Below are positions 46,331-56,084 of a stretch of DNA of 64,000 nt, in pieces (the stretch's first letter is position 1; each line of letters opens with the position of its first letter). The stretch is from Clostridium sp. GTDB taxonomy: Bacteria > Bacillota > Clostridia > Clostridiales > Clostridiaceae. Under the pieces are notes generated by a model, which saw only the letters and a list, made by a program, of their open reading frames with translations, did not search any database and was not told the DNA's origin. The position numbers were made by a program, and so were the translations under genes. Location: positions 4,201-68,200 of the forward strand of contig NZ_DATCQT010000090.1 of NCBI RefSeq assembly GCF_036569345.1, written 5' to 3'.

Positions 46331-47104
46331 ATGAGAGGAGAAAGATTGATGTTATATATTATTAAAACCATTGCTAATTTGATTTTACCTCCAGGATGCT
46401 TGATCATTTCTCTGGTTATATATATTATTTTATATTACAAAAAAAACAAAGAATTACCTAAACTTATTGTTTTTATAACTTTACTTTTTTACATAATATC
46501 AATACCTCTTACCTCAAACTTATTAATGCATTCATTAGAATACAAATATCTACAACCTATTGAATTGGATGGAGACGTTATCGTAGTATTAGGTGGTGGA
46601 GCTACTTTAAGTTCTCCTGATTTAAGTGGTAGCGGTAATCTGTCAGGTTCTGCAGCTAATCGATTGCTATTAGCTGCCCGTATGCATATAACAACTGGAC
46701 TACCAATAATATTTTCAGGTGGCCAAGTATTTAAAACTTCTGGAAATGAAGCTGAAATCGCCAATCGTCAGTTATTAGATTTAGGATTAAGTAAAAATGC
46801 TGTGATTATGGAAAATAAAAGTCTCAACACTACTGAAAATGCAAATTTCACTAAAGTAATTTTAACAAAATATAAATACACAAACCCTATATTGTTGACA
46901 TCAGCTTTCCATATGTACCGGGCAATAATTAATTTTAATAATGCTGGAATAAAAAATCTCCAAATATATCCTTGCGATTTTACTACAAATAAAAAACTAT
47001 CTATTGGTTTTGATTCCTTTGTACCATCAGGTGCAAGTTTAAGTTCTTCTTCAGTAGCGTTGCATGAATATTTAGGTATAATTCAATTATTAATAAAAAA
47101 ATAA
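46331..47104 (+). CDS. YdcF/DUF218 family membrane protein
   Basis: IVVLGGG, IIFSGG, ENKSLNTTENA, LLTSAFHMYRA, LHEYLG. Confidence 0.9.
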   Translation: MRGERLMLYIIKTIANLILPPGCLIISLVIYIILYYKKNKELPKLIVFITLLFYIISIPLTSNLLMHSLEYKYLQPIELDGDVIVVLGGGATLSSPDLSGSGNLSGSAANRLLLAARMHITTGLPIIFSGGQVFKTSGNEAEIANRQLLDLGLSKNAVIMENKSLNTTENANFTKVILTKYKYTNPILLTSAFHMYRAIINFNNAGIKNLQIYPCDFTTNKKLSIGFDSFVPSGASLSSSSVALHEYLGIIQLLIKK

Positions 47105-47134
47105 CTAGCTTAATTTAGCTAGTTATTTTTGGTT
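47097..47134. repeat. 38-bp palindromic direct repeat, right copy (terminator-like)
   Basis: aaaaataactagcttaatttagctagttatttttggtt. Confidence 0.85.
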
Positions 47135-47165: not shown

Positions 47166-48482
47166 TTATTTTAAAGATATAAAACCCGCTACGAATGAAT
47201 CTCCTAAACCTACAGTACAAACAGGCATACATACTTTTCTACTAGGGGCCACAGCAATTGCTTGAGATTCATTTATTTTGCATATTAAATTTTCATCAAT
47301 TATTCCTTTTTTAATTAATCCCTCTATTTGTTCAATTCCTTCGGTACTAGCAGGAATTTCTTTTATACAATCCCTCAATTCTTCATATCCGCCAAACCAT
47401 CCTGTTCTTGCCCTGTTGCATGATACAAGATTTCCCATAAATAGTGAATCTCTTACCTTAATAGGATTATTCCCAGTTATTCCAACAGAGAAATTTTCCG
47501 TATGTATAATTAATTCCTTAAAATTTAATTCATTATACGTATATAAGGCCTTTTCTAATAAATCATTAATATTCTTAACATCTACTTGCATATTTCTATT
47601 TGCAAGTAAATCCTCAAATTCATTTTCATTCATTCCAATGCAATCAGCAAAATCCAGTACACTAAAAAATATAAGCTCTTTTAATTCCTTATTTTTAGTA
47701 TCCCCATTTTCGAAATATACAAATATATCATTATTTAATGCTTTTATTTGTTTTATACATTTACTTACATAATCTAATTTTTGCTGTAAATTTTCCTTAT
47801 TTGATATAATATTAAATCCAGATAACACAATAGCCCTTATACATTTTGCATTTTCTAAGGCAAATTCTAGAAAGTCTTTATTAAATTCTAGATTTTCATC
47901 TAAGTGCATTATTAATCTATTAGCACGTGGACATTTTATTTCTTTGTCCTTGTCTCCAACTATTAATGATTCATCAAATTCGAATATAAAATGTTCGTAA
48001 GGAGTTTTTTCATAATTGCACTTATCCAACTTTAGTATTTTGTTACCACTTGGTAAATATATATTCTCTCCAAAAAGAAGTGCTTTTAGTTTTTCCGACA
48101 TATAGGTGCTGTGAAGTATTACTTTATTATTTAGCATACTTAGTGCATTACATATTTGGGCTCCTGTTCCCCCTATCTTAAATTCCCACGGAAATTCATT
48201 TTTCATCCACTCACAAATTTCATTGTTTTCCACTAATAATTCTCCACCTCGTCCAGTACTTATATAACTGTACAAAGCACTGTAAAAGTCATTTTTATCT
48301 TTTATTACTGTTTCCTCATTAAACCTTGTATATAGGCATTTATCCTTTATATGTTCTTTGTTCAAATGTGTTACATAATCTATATTTGTAGCAAGCCCTG
48401 TCATAATATATTTGTTTTCATAAGTTTTAGACTTATTTTTACTTTCACTTAAAGCGCTAGTATAAAAGCAATCAACATCCAC
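47166..48482 (-). CDS. ADP-dependent glucokinase/phosphofructokinase family sugar kinase
   Basis: GLATNIDY, KIGGTGAQICNAL, CPRANRLI, LSGFN, MNENE, TVGLGDSFVAG. Confidence 0.82.
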   Translation of the reverse strand: MDVDCFYTSALSESKNKSKTYENKYIMTGLATNIDYVTHLNKEHIKDKCLYTRFNEETVIKDKNDFYSALYSYISTGRGGELLVENNEICEWMKNEFPWEFKIGGTGAQICNALSMLNNKVILHSTYMSEKLKALLFGENIYLPSGNKILKLDKCNYEKTPYEHFIFEFDESLIVGDKDKEIKCPRANRLIMHLDENLEFNKDFLEFALENAKCIRAIVLSGFNIISNKENLQQKLDYVSKCIKQIKALNNDIFVYFENGDTKNKELKELIFFSVLDFADCIGMNENEFEDLLANRNMQVDVKNINDLLEKALYTYNELNFKELIIHTENFSVGITGNNPIKVRDSLFMGNLVSCNRARTGWFGGYEELRDCIKEIPASTEGIEQIEGLIKKGIIDENLICKINESQAIAVAPSRKVCMPVCTVGLGDSFVAGFISLK

Positions 48483-48628
48483 AATAAATCCTCCCGCCTT
48501 TTATTCACATCATACTCAATCTCTACCTGCTATATTTATTAAATATAAATATTTTAATACTTTTCTAGTTTTATCTTACAAGAAATACTTAGAAGCTACT
48601 TCTTGTAAGATGTTTAAATGTGTTTACC

Positions 48629-49582
48629 CTATTTCTTGAAATTTGCTAAATTAGCCTTTGTTACAAGTTGGAATGGTATAAAATATTTTTTTTGTACGGT
48701 CTTTCCACTAGCTACCAGATTCGCTATCTCTATAGCTTTAGCCCCTTGTCCCTTTGCATCTTGAAAAACAGTTGCTATGAATTTTCCATCTTCTACAGCT
48801 TTTAACGCATCCGGAATTGCATCTATGCCTATGACTTTAATCTTATCTTTTTTACCTGCTGCTTCAATAGCATTGTATGCCCCTATGCCCATTTCATCGT
48901 TTTGTGCTACAACACAATTAATATCTAGCTTTGCTTGAATCCAATTTTCCATTAATGCCATGCCTTGAGCTCTATCCCAATTAGCTGATTGCTCTGCCAA
49001 TAATTTTATATTTGGGTTTTTAGCAAGTATTTGTTTAATCCCTTGTGTTCTTTGTACTTCAGCAGAGTTTCCCATTGGTCCATGCATTATTACTATGTTA
49101 CCTTTACCTTTTAATAAATCAGCAGCATATTTCATTTCTATAGTTCCTGCTTCTACATCATTTGATCCAACATATGCCGTTGCCTTGTCAATGTTTGAAA
49201 CTAGTGAATTAACTATAATAATTGGAATATTAGCTGCAACTGCCTTGTCGACTACTGGAGCACAAGCATTGGAATCTGTAGGAGCCATAACTATTGCGTC
49301 AACTTTCTGAGAAATCAAGCTTTCTGCTTGAGATATTTGTTTTGCTGCATCCCCCTGGCCGTCCAACCCAACGAACTCTACTCCTAACTCCTTTGCTTTT
49401 GCTTCAGCTGCACTTTTCATGTAAACCTGGAATTCATTACTTAAATTAGTGTTAATAAAACCTATCTTAATCTTTTTATTGTTACTCCCAGAGGTTGCAG
49501 TACTCTGTTTTCCACATCCTGTCAACGGCGCAAGCACCAACAATAAAGCTAGAAGTGTACCGATAACTCTTTTTTTATTCAT
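48629..49582 (-). CDS. Sugar ABC transporter substrate-binding lipoprotein (RbsB-like)
   Basis: Lipobox LTGC, QISQAESLI, ANWDRAQG, AQNDEMGIGA, GIDA. Confidence 0.92.
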   Translation of the reverse strand: MNKKRVIGTLLALLLVLAPLTGCGKQSTATSGSNNKKIKIGFINTNLSNEFQVYMKSAAEAKAKELGVEFVGLDGQGDAAKQISQAESLISQKVDAIVMAPTDSNACAPVVDKAVAANIPIIIVNSLVSNIDKATAYVGSNDVEAGTIEMKYAADLLKGKGNIVIMHGPMGNSAEVQRTQGIKQILAKNPNIKLLAEQSANWDRAQGMALMENWIQAKLDINCVVAQNDEMGIGAYNAIEAAGKKDKIKVIGIDAIPDALKAVEDGKFIATVFQDAKGQGAKAIEIANLVASGKTVQKKYFIPFQLVTKANLANFKK

Positions 49583-49656
49583 AATATTTCCCCCTTAATT
49601 TACTCAAATTTGAGTATCTTTTATTAATTGAATTAGGAATAAGTATTTACTCCTAA

Positions 49657-50634
49657 TTAATTTTTTGAATTATTTTTCTTATCAAAATATACTGCCCCCA
49701 CTATTATGACGCCTTTAACAATTTGTTGGTAATACGATGGCACATTTAACAAATCTAATCCATTATTCATAACTCCTATAATTAAAGCACCTATAACAGT
49801 ACCTTTGATTGATCCTTTACCACCACTTAAACTCGTGCCACCTATAACTACAGCCGCAATAGCATCTAATTCATACCCTTGTCCTGCAACAACTGTACCA
49901 GCCATAACTCTTGAGGATAGTATAACTCCTGCTAATCCAGTTAAAGTTCCTGCTAATCCATATACTAAAATTTTAATTTTATTTATATTTAAACCTGATA
50001 CCTCGGCTGAAACTTCATTCCCACCAATTGCATAAACATGACGACCAAACCTTGTATATTTCAGTATAAAGTTTGCTAAAACTATTACTACTATAAGAAT
50101 TATTACCGGTATCGGTATACCTATTATATATCCGCCACCAATATTATTATAAGAAGTACTTAAGTCAATTACAGGCCTTCCAGACTTATACACTAATGTA
50201 AGCCCTCTTGCTGTGGTCAGCATACCTAATGTAACTATGAAAGGAGCAACCTTGCCTTTTGCTATTATGAAGCCATTAGCTAGACCACATAATAGCCCTA
50301 TTCCAACTCCAATAATTATTGAAACAATTAACGGATATTGCCCTGGATGTGCGAAATCACAAGCCACTATTGAAGAAAATGCCAAAACCGAACCCGGTGA
50401 AAGATCAATTCCACCAGTAATAATTATAAAAGTCATTCCTACAGCTATTATTCCATTTATTGAAATTTGTCTTAATATATTCATAACATTGTCAACTGTC
50501 AAGAAGTTTTCATTAGCTAAAGTAAGTATTATACATAGCAATATAAAAACTATATATATTCCATATTCCAATAGATATCCCTTTACATTATCAATAAAAC
50601 TAACTGTTTCCTTTTTATCTAAAACCGCTTTCAT
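49657..50634 (-). CDS. Sugar ABC transporter permease (RbsC-like)
   Basis: GGIDLSPG, APFIVTLG, TRFGRHVYAIGGN, YELDAIAAVVIGGTSLSGG. Confidence 0.93.
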   Translation of the reverse strand: MKAVLDKKETVSFIDNVKGYLLEYGIYIVFILLCIILTLANENFLTVDNVMNILRQISINGIIAVGMTFIIITGGIDLSPGSVLAFSSIVACDFAHPGQYPLIVSIIIGVGIGLLCGLANGFIIAKGKVAPFIVTLGMLTTARGLTLVYKSGRPVIDLSTSYNNIGGGYIIGIPIPVIILIVVIVLANFILKYTRFGRHVYAIGGNEVSAEVSGLNINKIKILVYGLAGTLTGLAGVILSSRVMAGTVVAGQGYELDAIAAVVIGGTSLSGGKGSIKGTVIGALIIGVMNNGLDLLNVPSYYQQIVKGVIIVGAVYFDKKNNSKN

Positions 50635-52151
50635 TAAACAACTTCCCCCTTTTTATGACCAGCTGCACAAGCCATTATTTTCTCTTGACTAATTTCATCT
50701 CTCCTAAATTCACCGGTAATTTCACCTTCATATAGAACTATGACCCTATCACTCATTCCAATTACTTCAGGCATTTCTGAAGAAATCATTATTATTGCTT
50801 TTCCTTCACTTGCTAATTGACTCATTATACTGTAAATTTCAGATTTAGCTCCTATATCTATCCCTCTTGTTGGTTCATCAAGGATTATTACATCGGGGTT
50901 ACCAGAAATCCACTTTGCCATCACAACTTTTTGTTGATTACCCCCACTTAAATTATTTACACTTTGATTCAATGAATGAGTTTTAATATTAAACCTCTTA
51001 ACTAAATCCTTAGCAACTTCCTTCTCTTTTGAACCATCTATTATGTTATTCCATAGACAATACTTCTTAAGATTAACCAATGTTATATTTTCTTTAACGC
51101 TAAATTTTAAATTTAACCCTTTCAAGCTTCTATCTTCAGAAACAAAAGCAAGTCCTAACTTTATTGCATCCCTCGGCTTATTAATAACTACTGATTTACC
51201 TTTAAGAAGTATCTCTCCCGAATCAGCCTTATTGACACCAAATATAGCTTCTACTATTTCGGTTCTGCCAGCTCCCATAAGTCCAGCAATGCCCAAAATT
51301 TCTCCCTTTTGAACTTTAAAATTAATATTTTTAAATTTAGCTTCTTTACTAAAATTTTTGACTTCTAATGCAACTTCACCTACTTTAGTACTTTTTTTCA
51401 TAAAGACATCCTTTAATTCTCTTCCTACCATAAGTGATATTAATTTTTGATTATTAAGTTCTCCGGCAGTGCTTGTTTCAATATGCTTACCATCTCTTAG
51501 TACTGTGATATAATCTGAAATTTTAAAGATCTCTTCCATTTTATGAGAAATATATATTATACTCTTGCCTTTCTTTTTCAGCTCATTAATTAGTATGAAA
51601 AGCTTTTCAGTTTCCCTGGCGGTGATTGCAGAGGTAGGCTCATCCATAATAATTATATTTGAATTAAATGATATTGCTTTTGCAATTTCCACCATTTGCG
51701 CTTCTGCCACACTTAACTTTGAAAGTTTAATATTAGGATTCATCTTAACACCAATAGTATTTAGATAATAAATTGTTTGTTCTTTAATTTCCTTGTTGTT
51801 TATGATTTGAAAATGTTTTGTAGGCTCGCGACCAATAAACATATTTTCTGCAATAGTCATTTCTGGAATGAAATTTAGTTCTTGATGAATCATTGATATC
51901 CCATTTTTAAGTGCTTCTTTTGTATTGTTAATAATCACCTTATCCCCATTTAAAATGATTTCTCCACCATCCGGTTTATACATACCATTTAATATTTTCA
52001 TTAATGTTGACTTGCCTGCTCCATTTTCCCCCATTAGAGTATGTACAGAGCCCTTTTTCACTTTAATTGTTACATTATCTAGCACTTTAGCTCCTGAAAA
52101 AACTTTAGTTATATTGTTCATTTCCAAGACATATTCAGTTTCATTAATCAT
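50634..52151 (-). CDS. Sugar ABC transporter ATP-binding protein (RbsA/MglA-like)
   Basis: GENGAGKST, MDEPT, LSGGNQQKV, DEPTRGIDIG. Confidence 0.93.
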   Translation of the reverse strand: MINETEYVLEMNNITKVFSGAKVLDNVTIKVKKGSVHTLMGENGAGKSTLMKILNGMYKPDGGEIILNGDKVIINNTKEALKNGISMIHQELNFIPEMTIAENMFIGREPTKHFQIINNKEIKEQTIYYLNTIGVKMNPNIKLSKLSVAEAQMVEIAKAISFNSNIIIMDEPTSAITARETEKLFILINELKKKGKSIIYISHKMEEIFKISDYITVLRDGKHIETSTAGELNNQKLISLMVGRELKDVFMKKSTKVGEVALEVKNFSKEAKFKNINFKVQKGEILGIAGLMGAGRTEIVEAIFGVNKADSGEILLKGKSVVINKPRDAIKLGLAFVSEDRSLKGLNLKFSVKENITLVNLKKYCLWNNIIDGSKEKEVAKDLVKRFNIKTHSLNQSVNNLSGGNQQKVVMAKWISGNPDVIILDEPTRGIDIGAKSEIYSIMSQLASEGKAIIMISSEMPEVIGMSDRVIVLYEGEITGEFRRDEISQEKIMACAAGHKKGEVV

Positions 52152-52226
52152 ATTCCCACCCCCCCATTTAATTTTAACCTCTTAATTATTATTTGATTCC
52201 AAACTAATGTAAATTAAATTGTTTCC

Positions 52227-53105
52227 TTAAACTTTATCATCGGCCATAGATTCTTCATGCTCACTAATCCAACTATAAGCATCCCGTTTTTCTACAGCCA
52301 ATAATAAAAATAGAGTTTCTATAACAACCATAGAAGGTATTCTTGTAAAACTGAATTCATCGAAGAATAATTTTTCTCTTACTGCTGTATTTATTTGATA
52401 TTTACATTTATTGGCCAATGGAGACTTTTCATGACTAGTAATACAAATTGTAGTGGCCTGTTTCCCATTTGCAACATCAATTAAAGTTAATAGCCTCTTC
52501 GAAGAACCTGAATTAGATACCGCAATTACAACATCTTTTTCAGTTAAGGTATATACAAAAGCAAGTTGATTTTCCCATATGGTACTTGATACAGATGCTA
52601 TACCTATCTGATTGAATTTATATGCTCCATCTAAAGTTATAGGTATGGAATTTCCTAATGCTGCAAACTGAACTATTCTAGCATTCTTAATTGCATCTAA
52701 TATTTTTTTTAGTGTATCTTCATTCATCATTGATATAGTTTGCCTTAGCTCTTCAATTTTGTTGGCCAATATATTCTGAAGAGACTGTCCTATGTTATTT
52801 ATATCCAAATCATTAGATATATTTTTGTCTTCTGAATTTACAATCTCCTTAGCAAGTTGTATTTTCATGTGATGAAATCCCTTGAAGTCACTTTTTTTGC
52901 AAAACCTTATTATTGTAGCCTCGCTAACGTTACTTTGGAAGGACAGCTCAGAAACTGTCATATCTATAACCTTTTCTTGATTATTTAAAACATAATCAGC
53001 AACTTTTTTTTCTGCTTCGAATAGATTTTCATAAATTACTAAAATTTGATGTAATGCACTTTTCCCATTATTTTTCAATTCCAATAGCCCCTTAATTTTC
53101 GTCAT
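52227..53105 (-). CDS. MurR/RpiR family transcriptional regulator
   Basis: AEKKVADYV, VSEATIIRFCKK.DFKGF HTH; SIS domain VSNSGSS. Confidence 0.9.
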   Translation of the reverse strand: MTKIKGLLELKNNGKSALHQILVIYENLFEAEKKVADYVLNNQEKVIDMTVSELSFQSNVSEATIIRFCKKSDFKGFHHMKIQLAKEIVNSEDKNISNDLDINNIGQSLQNILANKIEELRQTISMMNEDTLKKILDAIKNARIVQFAALGNSIPITLDGAYKFNQIGIASVSSTIWENQLAFVYTLTEKDVVIAVSNSGSSKRLLTLIDVANGKQATTICITSHEKSPLANKCKYQINTAVREKLFFDEFSFTRIPSMVVIETLFLLLAVEKRDAYSWISEHEESMADDKV

Positions 53106-53165
53106 TAGATAGTTTTATTATTACATTGAGTCATATGATTAAATAGTAACTCAATATTTTCTTAT

Positions 53166-54428
53166 TTACACCTCTGGAGCATACTTAATCAAATAGTCTT
53201 CTGCTTCTGCATTCCATAGTCCATCATGTTTCTCTACTATTTTACCCAGCTCCTTAAGTAAATCATTATCACTAGCATTTTTCATATCATTAATTGCTGT
53301 TAACTTTAGGCATTTGTGAGTATACACTATCTTCTTACCACCTTCTATGTTAGGAAGGCTTAATGTAATTTTAACTGCATCATCCAGGCCAAGAATATGT
53401 GTTGCAATCTTTGCAACATTAATCTTCTTACCTTCAATCAATCTTAGCGCTTGTCTCATGTCATCTGTATTTCCTCCACTGGTACCAACTACATGGATTG
53501 CATTATAATGAACATTATAGAAATTAAATTCAGCTGAGAAATTCTTATCCTGTGGACCAGCAAAGAAATTTAAACAACCATCATATGCTAAAATAGATGT
53601 TCCTGATTCAACTAATGATTTTACTGGAGCGAGAATAAATACATCGTCAAATCCTTTGTCCCCTTCAGTTAGCCCTCGCAAATAACCTGCATCATCACTC
53701 AGACCTTTAGTATTAACGTACTTAAGTGTAATTCCTTGTTTCTTTGCCTCTTGTTCTGTATATAATTCACGTGCGAAATCTATCTTTTGTTGTGTACGTC
53801 CTGTAACTACAAGAAGCTTAGGCCTTTTAGGACCGTGTAGCGCAAAATCTATAGCTAAAAATCCCATTGGTCCGGTTGCTCCCAATAAAGCCAAGTTTCC
53901 ACCTTCACGTATACCCATTTCATGTTCATATCCACCACCAGATACCATATGATAGTTCGCATTAAATGCTCCTATGACACAAGACATTGGTTCTACTAAG
54001 GAGCCTTCAAAATATGACTCACCACTATAGGCTAGCAAACAATCCTTTTCCATAACAACGTTTGGAATTAAGATTATAGTGGCATCTCCTCCTATATAAT
54101 TATAGGAATACCCAGGAGCTAATCCTCCTTCTAAACCTAAATTTGGTTGAATTACAAATTTATCTCCTTCTTTATATTTTTCTCTCCACTTGTTACCAAC
54201 CTTTAGGATTTTCCCACAAAACTCATGTCCAACGATTACTGGATTTTCCCATACATCGTCCGGTACCTTTTTATGATTTTCTCCTTGCACTGTAGCTTTA
54301 TAACTTGACATACATAAACTATCACTCACTATTTCCGCAATTATTTCATCATCTTTCATTTCAGGCAATTCAAATTCCTCTAATCTCAAATCTTTTTTTC
54401 CATATAATCTTAACGCTTTAGTTTTCAA
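53166..54428 (-). CDS. sorE: L-sorbose-1-phosphate reductase-like zinc-binding dehydrogenase
   Basis: MKTKALRLYGKKDLRLEEFELP, SDSLCMSSYKA, VGHEFCG, EPMSCVIG, VVGTSGGNTDDM, GGKKIVY. Confidence 0.8.
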   Translation of the reverse strand: MKTKALRLYGKKDLRLEEFELPEMKDDEIIAEIVSDSLCMSSYKATVQGENHKKVPDDVWENPVIVGHEFCGKILKVGNKWREKYKEGDKFVIQPNLGLEGGLAPGYSYNYIGGDATIILIPNVVMEKDCLLAYSGESYFEGSLVEPMSCVIGAFNANYHMVSGGGYEHEMGIREGGNLALLGATGPMGFLAIDFALHGPKRPKLLVVTGRTQQKIDFARELYTEQEAKKQGITLKYVNTKGLSDDAGYLRGLTEGDKGFDDVFILAPVKSLVESGTSILAYDGCLNFFAGPQDKNFSAEFNFYNVHYNAIHVVGTSGGNTDDMRQALRLIEGKKINVAKIATHILGLDDAVKITLSLPNIEGGKKIVYTHKCLKLTAINDMKNASDNDLLKELGKIVEKHDGLWNAEAEDYLIKYAPEV

Positions 54429-54514
54429 GTTAAATCCACTTCCTTCATTAATTGTCTTTTATAACTCACACTCAACCCATAACTTTATGGAAAACTCACC
54501 TCATGTAACCCTCC

Positions 54515-55345
54515 TTATCCTCTTGTTTTTCCACCAGCTATATTATAAGTTACTCCATGAATATAGCTGGCTCTATCGGACGCCAGGTAGCAAACCAGAT
54601 CTGCAACTTCGCTTAATTTCCCAGGTCTTCCAATAGGAGTAATAGAACTATTAATATATCCTTTTCTTAAGTCATCTATAGTAATATTACGAGTATAAGA
54701 TAACGCTGTTTCATATTCAATGGTTCTTAATCCAGTTGCTTCTAAAATACCTGGTGCTACCCCAACAACTCTAATACCTTTTTTACCTAATTCTTTTGCC
54801 CAAGATCTTGTAAATGAATTAACAGCATTTTTCGTTGCCGCATAAGCACTTTGTCCTTCTGATCCTTCAAGTCCACATTCAGATGACATATTTATTATTA
54901 CACCAGAACCCTCTTTAATCATTTCTCGTGCGACAGCTTGAGCACAAAAAAATACACCCTTTTGGTTAACGTTTACAATTTTATCAAAAGTACTTTCATC
55001 TAGCTCATATTTCCCATACGGTTCTTTATCATCTACTAACAATCTTGGAATATTTATTCCAGCATTGTTTACTAAAATATCAATTTTACCAAAAATTTTC
55101 TTTGCCTTAAGTACCATTTTATTAACACTATCTAAACTTGTCACGTCTGTGTTTATATATATCATTTTGCCATTATCACCATTTTTGTCAAACTGAAGTT
55201 CCTTGGAACTCATATCACTCACAACTACATTTGCGCCATTTTCTAAAAATTCTTGTGCTATTTCTTTACCTATTCCTGATGCACCACCTGTAACAATTAC
55301 TGTTTTTGACCTCAACTCATCCAACCACTTACCCATATTATCCAC
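54515..55345 (-). CDS. sorD: Sorbitol-6-phosphate 2-dehydrogenase-like SDR
   Basis: TGGASGIG, NNAGINIPRLLVD, GLEGSEGQSAYAATK, NSFTRSWAKELG, NIAGGKTRG. Confidence 0.82.
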   Translation of the reverse strand: MDNMGKWLDELRSKTVIVTGGASGIGKEIAQEFLENGANVVVSDMSSKELQFDKNGDNGKMIYINTDVTSLDSVNKMVLKAKKIFGKIDILVNNAGINIPRLLVDDKEPYGKYELDESTFDKIVNVNQKGVFFCAQAVAREMIKEGSGVIINMSSECGLEGSEGQSAYAATKNAVNSFTRSWAKELGKKGIRVVGVAPGILEATGLRTIEYETALSYTRNITIDDLRKGYINSSITPIGRPGKLSEVADLVCYLASDRASYIHGVTYNIAGGKTRG

Positions 55346-55420: not shown

Positions 55421-55478
55421 CGAAGTTTTATTTTCTCTATTATAATTTTATGATAATACGCGAAGTTTTATTTGTCAA
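55421..55478 (-). promoter_or_regulatory. SigA promoter TTGACA-N17-TATCAT with two 13-bp direct-repeat operator candidates
   Basis: cgaagttttattt at 55421-55433 and 55461-55473; -35 at 55473-55478, upstream of sorD. Confidence 0.65.
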
Positions 55479-55579: not shown

Positions 55580-56084
55580 TTATAATTTCTCTGTATGTCC
55601 ACTTATATCGAGCATTGTCCCTGATATTTTCTGCCTATATTTTAAAACCTCGTAATCCGTACAATGGCATCTTTGTTGACCATAATAACCACAAGAACAA
55701 GGATTCATAGCAGCTATAAGCATGAAACTTGATGGATAAACATTGGCATGTTTAACTCTAGCAATAGTTACATTATTGTCTTCCACAGGCTGCCTTAAAG
55801 CATCTAAAGTTTTCTTATTAAACCCTGCGATTTCGTCTAAAAATAATACACCGTTATGCGCAAGCGAAATCTCCCCGGGCATAGCATTATTACCTCCACC
55901 TACAAGTGAATTCATAGAAGCATTGTGATGTGGTGATCTGAACGGTCTCTCTGTAAACTTGAAAATCTTCTTCGTCTCTAAATATGTCATTTCTATGATT
56001 ACCACGAGCTATAATATGGAGTAAAGTTACACCCTCTGAAATCTGTGCCAACAAAATACACATCCTGTTTTTTAACTTATTCAC
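55580..56084 (-). pseudogene. Collapsed relic: RAYT 5' fragment joined to an internal comM fragment
   Basis: HIIARGNHRNDIFRDEEDFQVY (RAYT) joins TERPFRSPHHNAS..ISGTMLD (comM); ~55607-55957 is roughly 90% identical by eye to 60345-60692. Confidence 0.88.

Follow-up and report, generated by a model that had tools for sequence, protein, structure and literature searches.

In the sorCDFBAME operon of Klebsiella pneumoniae and Escherichia coli and in the sor operon of Lactobacillaceae, uptake and phosphorylation of L-sorbose are carried out together by the mannose-class EIIA/B/C/D proteins of a phosphotransferase system (PTS), after which SorE converts L-sorbose-1-phosphate to D-glucitol-6-phosphate (PMC12817954) and SorD yields fructose-6-phosphate. 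Clostridial and Lachnospiraceae sor operons (L004, L007, L008 and L009) have an RpiR-type regulator and carry their EIIABCD genes between or before sorD and sorE. Here we describe a different arrangement in a 64,000-nucleotide stretch of DNA from Clostridium sp. (RefSeq assembly GCF_036569345.1, contig NZ_DATCQT010000090.1, positions 4,201 to 68,200; hereafter the window, whose own numbering is used throughout), in which sorD, sorE and rpiR genes are accompanied not by EII genes but by genes for an ABC importer and for a kinase of family PF04587, both lying downstream of rpiR. We consider this cluster to be a PTS-independent variant of the known L-sorbose pathway, with a kinase from an uncharacterised bacterial branch of a well-known family, and we give that reading a probability of about 0.55.

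ADP-dependent sugar kinases, the family concerned, are familiar from the modified glycolysis of archaea and from one enigmatic mammalian enzyme. The family also has scattered bacterial members, to which, to our knowledge, no function has been assigned. Our literature search turned up no account of bacterial PF04587 proteins, of a sorbose kinase belonging to this family or of a SorE route independent of a PTS.

A sor cluster without PTS genes

The cluster occupies positions 47166-55345 of the minus strand and consists of seven intact, tightly spaced and co-oriented open reading frames (ORFs; Table 1), whose positions are unchanged from the first-pass annotation. That annotation had recognised a sorD-like short-chain dehydrogenase/reductase (SDR), a sorE-like reductase, an RpiR regulator, an ABC importer and a kinase of the ADP-glucokinase/phosphofructokinase family, all of which are borne out by the ORF, Pfam and NCBIfam evidence; every ORF is full length and the catalytic motifs are intact. 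It had also remarked on the lack of PTS EII genes at the cluster, and a tblastn search of the entire window was likewise empty, the ABC importer and kinase standing in the place of the PTS. As judged from its predicted products, the gene content of the cluster would be self-sufficient for the conversion of an external sugar to fructose-6-phosphate. The GC content is ∼30%.

Three of the seven genes have close counterparts in PTS-type sor operons. Against NF004817 ("sorbitol-6-phosphate dehydrogenase subunit"), for which the cut-off is 304 bits, the SDR reaches 424; it carries the TGxxxGxG and YxxxK motifs and is 62% identical to SorD of K. pneumoniae and L. plantarum, and 78%, 71% and 61% identical to the SDRs of the PTS-type operons L007, L004 and L005, respectively. 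The product of the sorE-like gene, a medium-chain dehydrogenase/reductase (MDR), is 54% identical to that of the annotated sorE of K. pneumoniae and shares 77-78% identity with two proteins (P0012 and P0013) encoded directly after mannose-class EIIABCD genes, while the regulator is 79% and 77% identical to the RpiR proteins of PTS-type sor operons L008 and L009. The closest relatives of these three genes are in the clostridial and Lachnospiraceae operons L004, L007, L008 and L009, with SorD at 71-78%, SorE at 63-78% and RpiR at 47-79% identity and a similar promoter motif; in its RpiR-type regulator, too, the window resembles the clostridial and Anaerostipes sor operons rather than sorCDFBAME, whose regulator is of the SorC type.

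The MDR has thousands of homologues, and one at E <= 1e-80 was present in 102 of 399 genomes sampled across the class. Those of 63-78% identity whose contexts were examined (L004, L005, L007, L008 and L009) adjoin genes for mannose-class EIIA/B/C/D and an SDR, often with rpiR. A survey of sorE neighbourhoods lacking a PTS had been proposed with the original description of the locus; among 73 SorE-like loci sampled across the class, none had a mannose PTS within 9 kb, and their partners differed by clade, comprising a DeoR regulator with a fused-E1/E2/E3 2-oxoacid-dehydrogenase-like complex (35 loci), an FGGY kinase with CUT1 binding proteins (8 loci), a fructose/mannitol (Fru/Mtl)-type PTS with PfkB (8 loci) or a class II aldolase (7 loci). 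The survey raised the possibility that the MDR is a generic "SorE-like" protein of undefined role, which was dropped when a maximum-likelihood tree placed it in the PTS-linked SorE clade. In this tree the window SorE and an 85%-identical twin from a sister lineage (L010) nest among PTS-linked SorEs in a 6-row clade (SH-like approximate likelihood ratio test, SH-aLRT, 99). All seven PTS-linked SorEs, among them that of the K. pneumoniae sorCDFBAME operon and an L. plantarum plasmid copy, are contained in a 12-row clade with SH-aLRT 100. Given the nesting with the Klebsiella sorE and the SorD identities of 62% to Klebsiella and 78% to a clostridial sor operon, the MDR is a SorE orthologue and the SDR a SorD orthologue, as first suggested, with enzyme roles that are predicted from this relationship.

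Orthology of SorD, SorE and RpiR to the proteins of PTS-type sor operons, combined with the missing EII genes, leads us to conclude that the PTS has been displaced. On sequence evidence, sorD, sorE and the regulator gene derive from a PTS-type sor operon that has lost its EII genes, with the genes for the ABC importer and the kinase found downstream of rpiR.

Several other contexts of the MDR family were encountered in the survey. At 35 of 71 sampled Clostridia loci (L020-L084; for example L020, and L006:7092-15928) an MDR of another clade lies between the DeoR gene and the fused-E1, E2 and E3 genes of the 2-oxoacid-dehydrogenase-like complex, often with an SDR nearby, in a conserved association. 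At L036:6114-10369 and seven similar loci, genes for an FGGY kinase and for CUT1 binding proteins come after that for a SorE-like MDR of a separate clade, so that the MDR family is again paired with a soluble kinase independently of a PTS. Locus L054:8126-15339 holds a PTS operon for sorbitol (gut) that encodes GutM and EII-GUT; upstream of it are genes for a class II aldolase, for an MDR of the SorE clade and for a SorD-like SDR, the last 58% identical to the window SDR. The source genome itself holds a second SorE-like MDR on contig C175 (109520-117582; L011:1521-9601), at the end of a cluster encoding a Fru/Mtl-type EIICB, an MtlR-like PRD regulator, an EIICBA and a PfkB; this copy is 55% identical to the window SorE and falls with E. 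coli YggP in the Fru-PTS clade of the tree, and its cluster is a separate PTS-based route of the ketose-1-phosphate type in the same genome.

A kinase with a glucokinase-type pocket

The kinase covers positions 3-425 of the 430 in the PF04587 profile (161.5 bits, cut-off 27). Its AlphaFold2 model (predicted local distance difference test 91, predicted template-modelling score 0.92) was compared using Foldseek, giving template-modelling (TM) scores of 0.89 to the closed Pyrococcus furiosus ADP-dependent glucokinase (ADP-GK) complex 1UA4 and 0.88 to 5o0j; the best 22 matches in the PDB are all ADP-dependent glucokinases (GKs) or phosphofructokinases (PFKs). Identity to assayed enzymes is 20-24%. 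With the archaeal and eukaryotic ADP-GKs (P. furiosus 1UA4, Thermococcus litoralis 4B8S and human ADPGK) the kinase shares the fold, the GXGD Asp, the Arg, the NXXE motif and the GK-type Glu and His, but differs from them in this low identity, in three residues of the glucose site and in one residue of the HXE motif; it differs from the glycolytic enzymes also in being bacterial, operon-encoded and, by prediction, catabolic.

Functional residues were located by HMMER alignments to solved structures and mapped onto the roles assigned by alanine scanning of AncMsPFK (PMC7948494), whose numbering is given in brackets. The family-wide catalytic and Mg-ADP set is conserved, namely D35 (D36), R189 (R206; beta-phosphate), E258 (E282), N285/E288 (D310/E313; N285-E-N-E288, the NXXE motif), H327 (H360; ribose) and D428 (D471), the catalytic Asp of GXGD (G425-L-G-D428). 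The ligands of the fructose-6-phosphate (F6P) phosphate group are replaced at all three positions, by Y162 (K179), by H164 (N181), which is His in GKs, and by D195 (R212), whereas E81 (E90) is the Glu of the GK and bifunctional enzymes, which is Ala in PFK. An ADP-PFK acting on a sugar phosphate was accordingly ruled out, since the three F6P-phosphate ligands are absent (PMC7948494); the score against the ADP-PFK equivalog TIGR02045 is 110 bits for a cut-off of 408. The earlier proposal of a kinase for an imported sugar is thereby supported, the kinase being in the GK state wherever residues distinguish GK from PFK and having a neutral-sugar pocket of the glucokinase type.

Glucose itself is probably not the substrate. 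Two glucose contacts, Q116 and Q244, and a third residue at contact or near-contact distance, N32, correspond to T106, N224 and A31 in the kinase, and changes at these three positions recur across its 25 closest relatives. The ADP-GK equivalogs are scored at 165 bits for a cut-off of 387 (NF010642) and 97 for 554 (NF010641), below the level set for a glucose-specific GK. The GK-state specificity residues, the altered glucose contacts and the low ADP-GK scores together lead us to propose a pocket for a neutral, glucose-like pyranose, probably other than glucose.

With regard to the phosphoryl donor, ADP is favoured with modest confidence on the basis of the residues retained. The pathway could also run as proposed below with ATP or another donor, "ADP-dependent" being then a family name only, a question that is orthogonal to the identity of the sugar and an alternative to which we would give rather less than even odds. 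In its HXE Mg-ADP motif the kinase has Tyr (Y256) in place of His, sequence identity to assayed enzymes is low, and our literature search found no assayed bacterial member of this clade; against this, the Mg-ADP residues R189, E258, N285/E288 and H327 and the nucleotide-site loop P-x6-P-x2-TVGLGD are kept (PMC7948494), and the fold is close to that of ADP-GK.

The kinase is extremely rare. A word-indexed search of 5.8 billion proteins returned 8 relatives, and an exhaustive HMMER search of 1.84 billion representative proteins returned 470 at E <= 1e-3 and 22 at E <= 1e-30, the nearest outside the twin being 34% identical. A homologue is absent from 192 of the 194 scored genomes of the organism's own family, and a single-protein scan of species-representative genomes gave no close relatives; with a narrower kinase alignment as the query, 5 loci were found in genomes and 4 in metagenomes.

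Predicted substrate and pathway

L-sorbose is 5-keto-D-glucitol, an established stereochemical relationship that underlies the oxidation of sorbitol by Gluconobacter as well as the reaction of SorE (PMC12817954). In its pyranose form it corresponds to 1,5-anhydro-D-glucitol with an extra hydroxyl on C5, and its C1 hydroxymethyl stands in the place of glucose C6. Because C1 of L-sorbose is in this way the geometric equivalent of C6 of glucose, a glucokinase-type site would, by stereochemical analogy, make L-sorbose-1-phosphate, which is the substrate of SorE. Human ADPGK tolerates loss of the anomeric hydroxyl, its efficiency on 1,5-anhydroglucitol being 1/19 of that on glucose (PMC6347702).

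In the scheme that we propose, the lipoprotein binding protein and the CUT2 ABC importer would bring in free L-sorbose or a very close ketose; the kinase would bind it as a pyranose and phosphorylate its exocyclic CH2OH adjacent to the ring oxygen (C1 of L-sorbose), giving L-sorbose-1-phosphate; SorE would convert this to D-glucitol-6-phosphate and SorD the latter to fructose-6-phosphate, the predicted intermediates being those of the sorCDFBAME and Lactobacillaceae systems; and RpiR, kept from the PTS-type ancestor, would sense the same phosphosugar. We infer the identity of the sugar, the carbon phosphorylated, the use of ADP and co-transcription of the genes, and the full sequence of ABC-imported L-sorbose, C1 phosphorylation by the PF04587 kinase and conversion by SorE and SorD seems to us slightly better than an even bet.

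The importer set is complete, with a fused double ATPase, a BPD_transp_2 permease and a Peripla_BP_4 binding protein. All three proteins fall below the cut-offs of the corresponding Rbs equivalogs (588 bits for 745 for RbsA, 322 for 398 for RbsC and 185 for 337 for RbsB), and we therefore regard the system as a CUT2 (ribose-type) importer and not as the ribose transporter itself. The nearest homologues of the binding protein (55-65% identical) are unnamed or labelled "inositol/rhizopine-type".

A different sugar might be proposed, following the same logic of import, phosphorylation, SorE and SorD: another ketose or ketose-like compound with a 1-phosphate accepted by SorE, or 5-keto-D-fructose; D-glucitol could also enter at SorD. 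The nearest named relatives of the binding protein would be in keeping with such a substrate, as would a context of one binding-protein neighbour that includes two polyol-dehydrogenase-like MDRs, the three changed glucose-contact residues of the kinase and the presence of a SorE-clade member in the sorbitol PTS operon L054. On the other hand, the 77-79% identity of SorE, SorD and RpiR to the proteins of mannose-PTS sor operons, in the clade of the Klebsiella sorE, argues for the same phosphosugar intermediates; only L-sorbose requires both SorE and SorD to reach fructose-6-phosphate, and an open-chain polyol would be a poor fit for a pyranose pocket. We consequently regard another sugar as unlikely, and L-sorbose as the favoured candidate.

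Predicted transcription of the cluster and other possible sources of the substrate

The control elements found are listed with the genes in Table 1. The sole strong promoter of the cluster lies upstream of sorD, and its architecture is also present in the twin locus L010, whose sorD, sorE and rpiR genes follow the same order and encode proteins 85-86% identical to those of the window. The 12-mer AATAAAACTTCG occurs exactly twice in the window, both times at this promoter, and is found in the twin with identical copy number and spacing; in the Anaerostipes sor operon L004, copies with one mismatch stand ahead of the PTS genes. From this distribution the pair is a candidate operator for the RpiR regulator. 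In a terminator scan, the stretch from the sorD promoter through the kinase gene was free of canonical terminators until the end of the operon, where there is one, a long perfect palindrome. No CcpA catabolite-responsive element (cre) was found in the window.

Table 1. Genes and control elements of the sor cluster, in window coordinates.
Feature	Position	Strand	Assignment and evidence
sorD-like SDR, 276 aa	54515-55345	-	predicted D-glucitol-6-phosphate 2-dehydrogenase; NF004817, sequence identity
sorE orthologue, MDR, 420 aa	53166-54428	-	predicted L-sorbose-1-phosphate reductase; weak ADH_N and ADH_zinc_N matches
RpiR-family regulator, 292 aa	52227-53105	-	Pfam HTH_6 and SIS
CUT2 ABC ATPase (RbsA-like), 505 aa, two ATP-binding cassettes	50634-52151	-	ABC_tran x2; gene stop overlaps permease gene start
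CUT2 ABC permease (RbsC-like), 325 aa	49657-50634	-	PF02653 (BPD_transp_2), 158 bits
Lipoprotein sugar-binding protein, 317 aa	48629-49582	-	PF13407 (Peripla_BP_4), 224 bits; LTGC lipobox
PF04587-family kinase, 438 aa	47166-48482	-	predicted L-sorbose (ketopyranose) 1-kinase; GTG start behind GGAGGA ribosome-binding site
Promoter-like site TTGACA-17-TATCAT	55450-55478	-	upstream of sorD; 11/12 consensus positions
Two exact copies of AATAAAACTTCG, 40 bp apart	55461-55472 and 55421-55432	-	candidate RpiR operator
AU-rich hairpin	48573-48611	-	between binding-protein and kinase genes; ∼17 bp stem, no U-tract
Bidirectional intrinsic terminator	47097-47130	both	ends operon; 14-bp stem, T-runs on both strands

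A hairpin between the binding-protein and kinase genes, noticed from the start (at ∼48574-48612) as a possible boundary, was recovered by folding one nucleotide away. For the intergenic stretch in which it lies the z-score of the fold is -2.4, and it is not among the calls of the terminator scan; it probably acts on mRNA stability or as a partial attenuator.

A number of observations weigh against the proposed pathway, in addition to the Tyr at the HXE position of the kinase. The gap of 146 bp that separates the ABC genes from the kinase gene contains this stable hairpin, and the ABC genes have a weak promoter-like site in front of them, which together leave room for separate regulation of the kinase and ABC genes. 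The source genome is PTS-competent, with HPr and enzyme I homologues and Fru/Mtl-type EIIs, and contains one mannose-class PTS, on contig C134, with a LevR-like regulator, ManLMN and ManO/DUF956. E. coli without sorAM still takes up sorbose via other PTSs (PMC12817954), and SorE and SorD could therefore be fed from the C134 system without the kinase. The contexts of the three nearest binding-protein homologues are uninformative and give no hint of sorbose. Finally, the twin kinase and binding-protein genes are on contigs of 1.2-4.4 kb that are separate from the twin sorDE contig.

A sorbose PTS elsewhere in the genome had been named at the outset as an observation that would undo the proposal. 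The result is divided: the only mannose-class PTS is of the general LevR/ManLMN/ManO kind, yet it could supply sorbose-1-phosphate. The LevR-like regulator on C134 (L012:3868-6753) is present as two ORFs, a sigma-54 AAA protein of 509 aa and a PRD/EIIA-man protein of 449 aa, which could be a frameshift or a genuine split.

An alternative view is that two unrelated modules lie side by side, a sorD-sorE-rpiR remnant fed by the C134 mannose PTS and an ABC importer with a kinase whose target would be C6 of an aldose, for example glucose or mannose. Such an arrangement would accommodate the general mannose-class PTS with its HPr and enzyme I, sorbose carriage by other PTSs in the E. coli strain lacking sorAM (PMC12817954), the glucokinase-like pocket, and the hairpin and weak internal promoter-like site. 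It is harder to reconcile with the single strong promoter upstream of sorD and the terminator-free span from there to the end of the kinase gene, with the replacement of three glucose-contacting GK residues, with a score of 165 bits where the ADP-GK equivalog requires 387, and with kinase relatives that are dedicated to special ABC and aldolase operons and not to glycolysis. We judge it decidedly unlikely, and retain the single pathway for L-sorbose as the preferred explanation.

The surroundings of the cluster deserve mention. Directly upstream of the sor promoter, a 141-aa ORF (55580-56005) corresponds to an internal part, positions 260-380 of the 499 in the profile, of a YifB/ComM Mg-chelatase-like ATPase. 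An intact comM is found at 59948-61486, and ComM groups with proteins of Clostridium sp. and C. algoriphilum, in agreement with a Clostridium as the source organism. The sor cluster is located in a rearranged, mosaic region. In the sister lineage, transposase genes of insertion sequence type (rve, HTH_Tnp_1; L010:287-1509) precede sorD-sorE-rpiR, which suggests that the cluster is mobile. Counterparts of the kinase and binding protein also exist (87% and 90% identical), so that five of the seven cluster proteins have 85-90% identical counterparts in another lineage, on separate short contigs. A decaying, non-functional relic left after loss of the PTS genes would be at home in such mosaic surroundings, downstream of a truncated piece of comM, and beside the transposase genes of the twin locus, but seven full-length ORFs with intact catalytic motifs, and this degree of conservation of five of their products in another lineage, make decay very improbable.

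Operons of the kinase relatives

The five distant bacterial relatives of the kinase whose neighbourhoods were examined are all in import-and-catabolise operons. Two (L001 and L002) combine a CUT1 ABC importer, the kinase and a class II aldolase; a third, from a Bacillota metagenome-assembled genome (MAG; L015), has RpiR, a CUT1 ABC importer, the kinase and a class II aldolase; a fourth, from a genome of the window's own family (L093, G073:C3), has a CUT1 ABC importer, a class II aldolase, the kinase and RpiR; and the fifth, from a Lachnospiraceae MAG (L016), encodes a class II aldolase, a lyxose isomerase, the kinase, an FGGY kinase, a CUT2 ABC importer, TIM and RpiR. The aldolases belong to the generic "ketose-bisphosphate aldolase" subfamily and score below all equivalog cut-offs. 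Where the kinase is the sole kinase of its operon, its product has to be a substrate of the aldolase, which places the phosphate next to the keto carbon; by analogy, the aldolase context fits ketose 1-kinases.

The kinases of operons L001, L002, L015 and L093 are of the same subfamily as that of the window (27-35% identity), with D35, H164, R189, E258, E288, H327 and GLGD invariant between them, and the operons share its predicted logic of ABC import followed by one phosphorylation that creates the substrate of the next enzyme. They differ in that this next enzyme is an aldolase and the transporter is of the CUT1 type, as opposed to SorE reductase and a CUT2 transporter in the window. Among the kinase loci examined, the window cluster is the only one whose next enzyme has a known substrate. 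On this basis we tentatively extend the proposal to the bacterial ADP-PFK/GK branch as a whole, which may consist of ketopyranose 1-kinases, possibly ADP-dependent, that serve ABC import and whose products are cleaved by aldolases or reduced by SorE, the Clostridium enzyme being an L-sorbose 1-kinase; we would place this extension well short of even odds.

The same reaction, L-sorbose to L-sorbose-1-phosphate, is known for mammalian ketohexokinase (PMC10008635). That enzyme, however, is an ATP-dependent PfkB-type kinase outside PF04587 and has no pathway link to SorE or SorD.

Conclusions

The operon context described here, with a downstream enzyme of known substrate, makes the product of the kinase predictable as L-sorbose-1-phosphate and provides the first testable substrate prediction for this group of kinases. 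If the prediction is correct, the substrates of the PF04587 family, glucose and F6P, would come to include a ketose, the glucokinase or phosphofructokinase label that such genes receive by default would be corrected, and an L-sorbose 1-kinase would be useful for rare-sugar biocatalysis. The cluster would likewise be a clear case in which a non-orthologous ABC importer and kinase have displaced a PTS within an otherwise conserved operon, and would serve as a functional anchor for the recurrent operons of ABC importer, PF04587 kinase and aldolase. Should the branch as a whole prove to consist of ketopyranose 1-kinases, a function would be assigned to it for the first time, the family would gain a new class of substrate, and the SorE/SorD pathway would have its first entry independent of a PTS.

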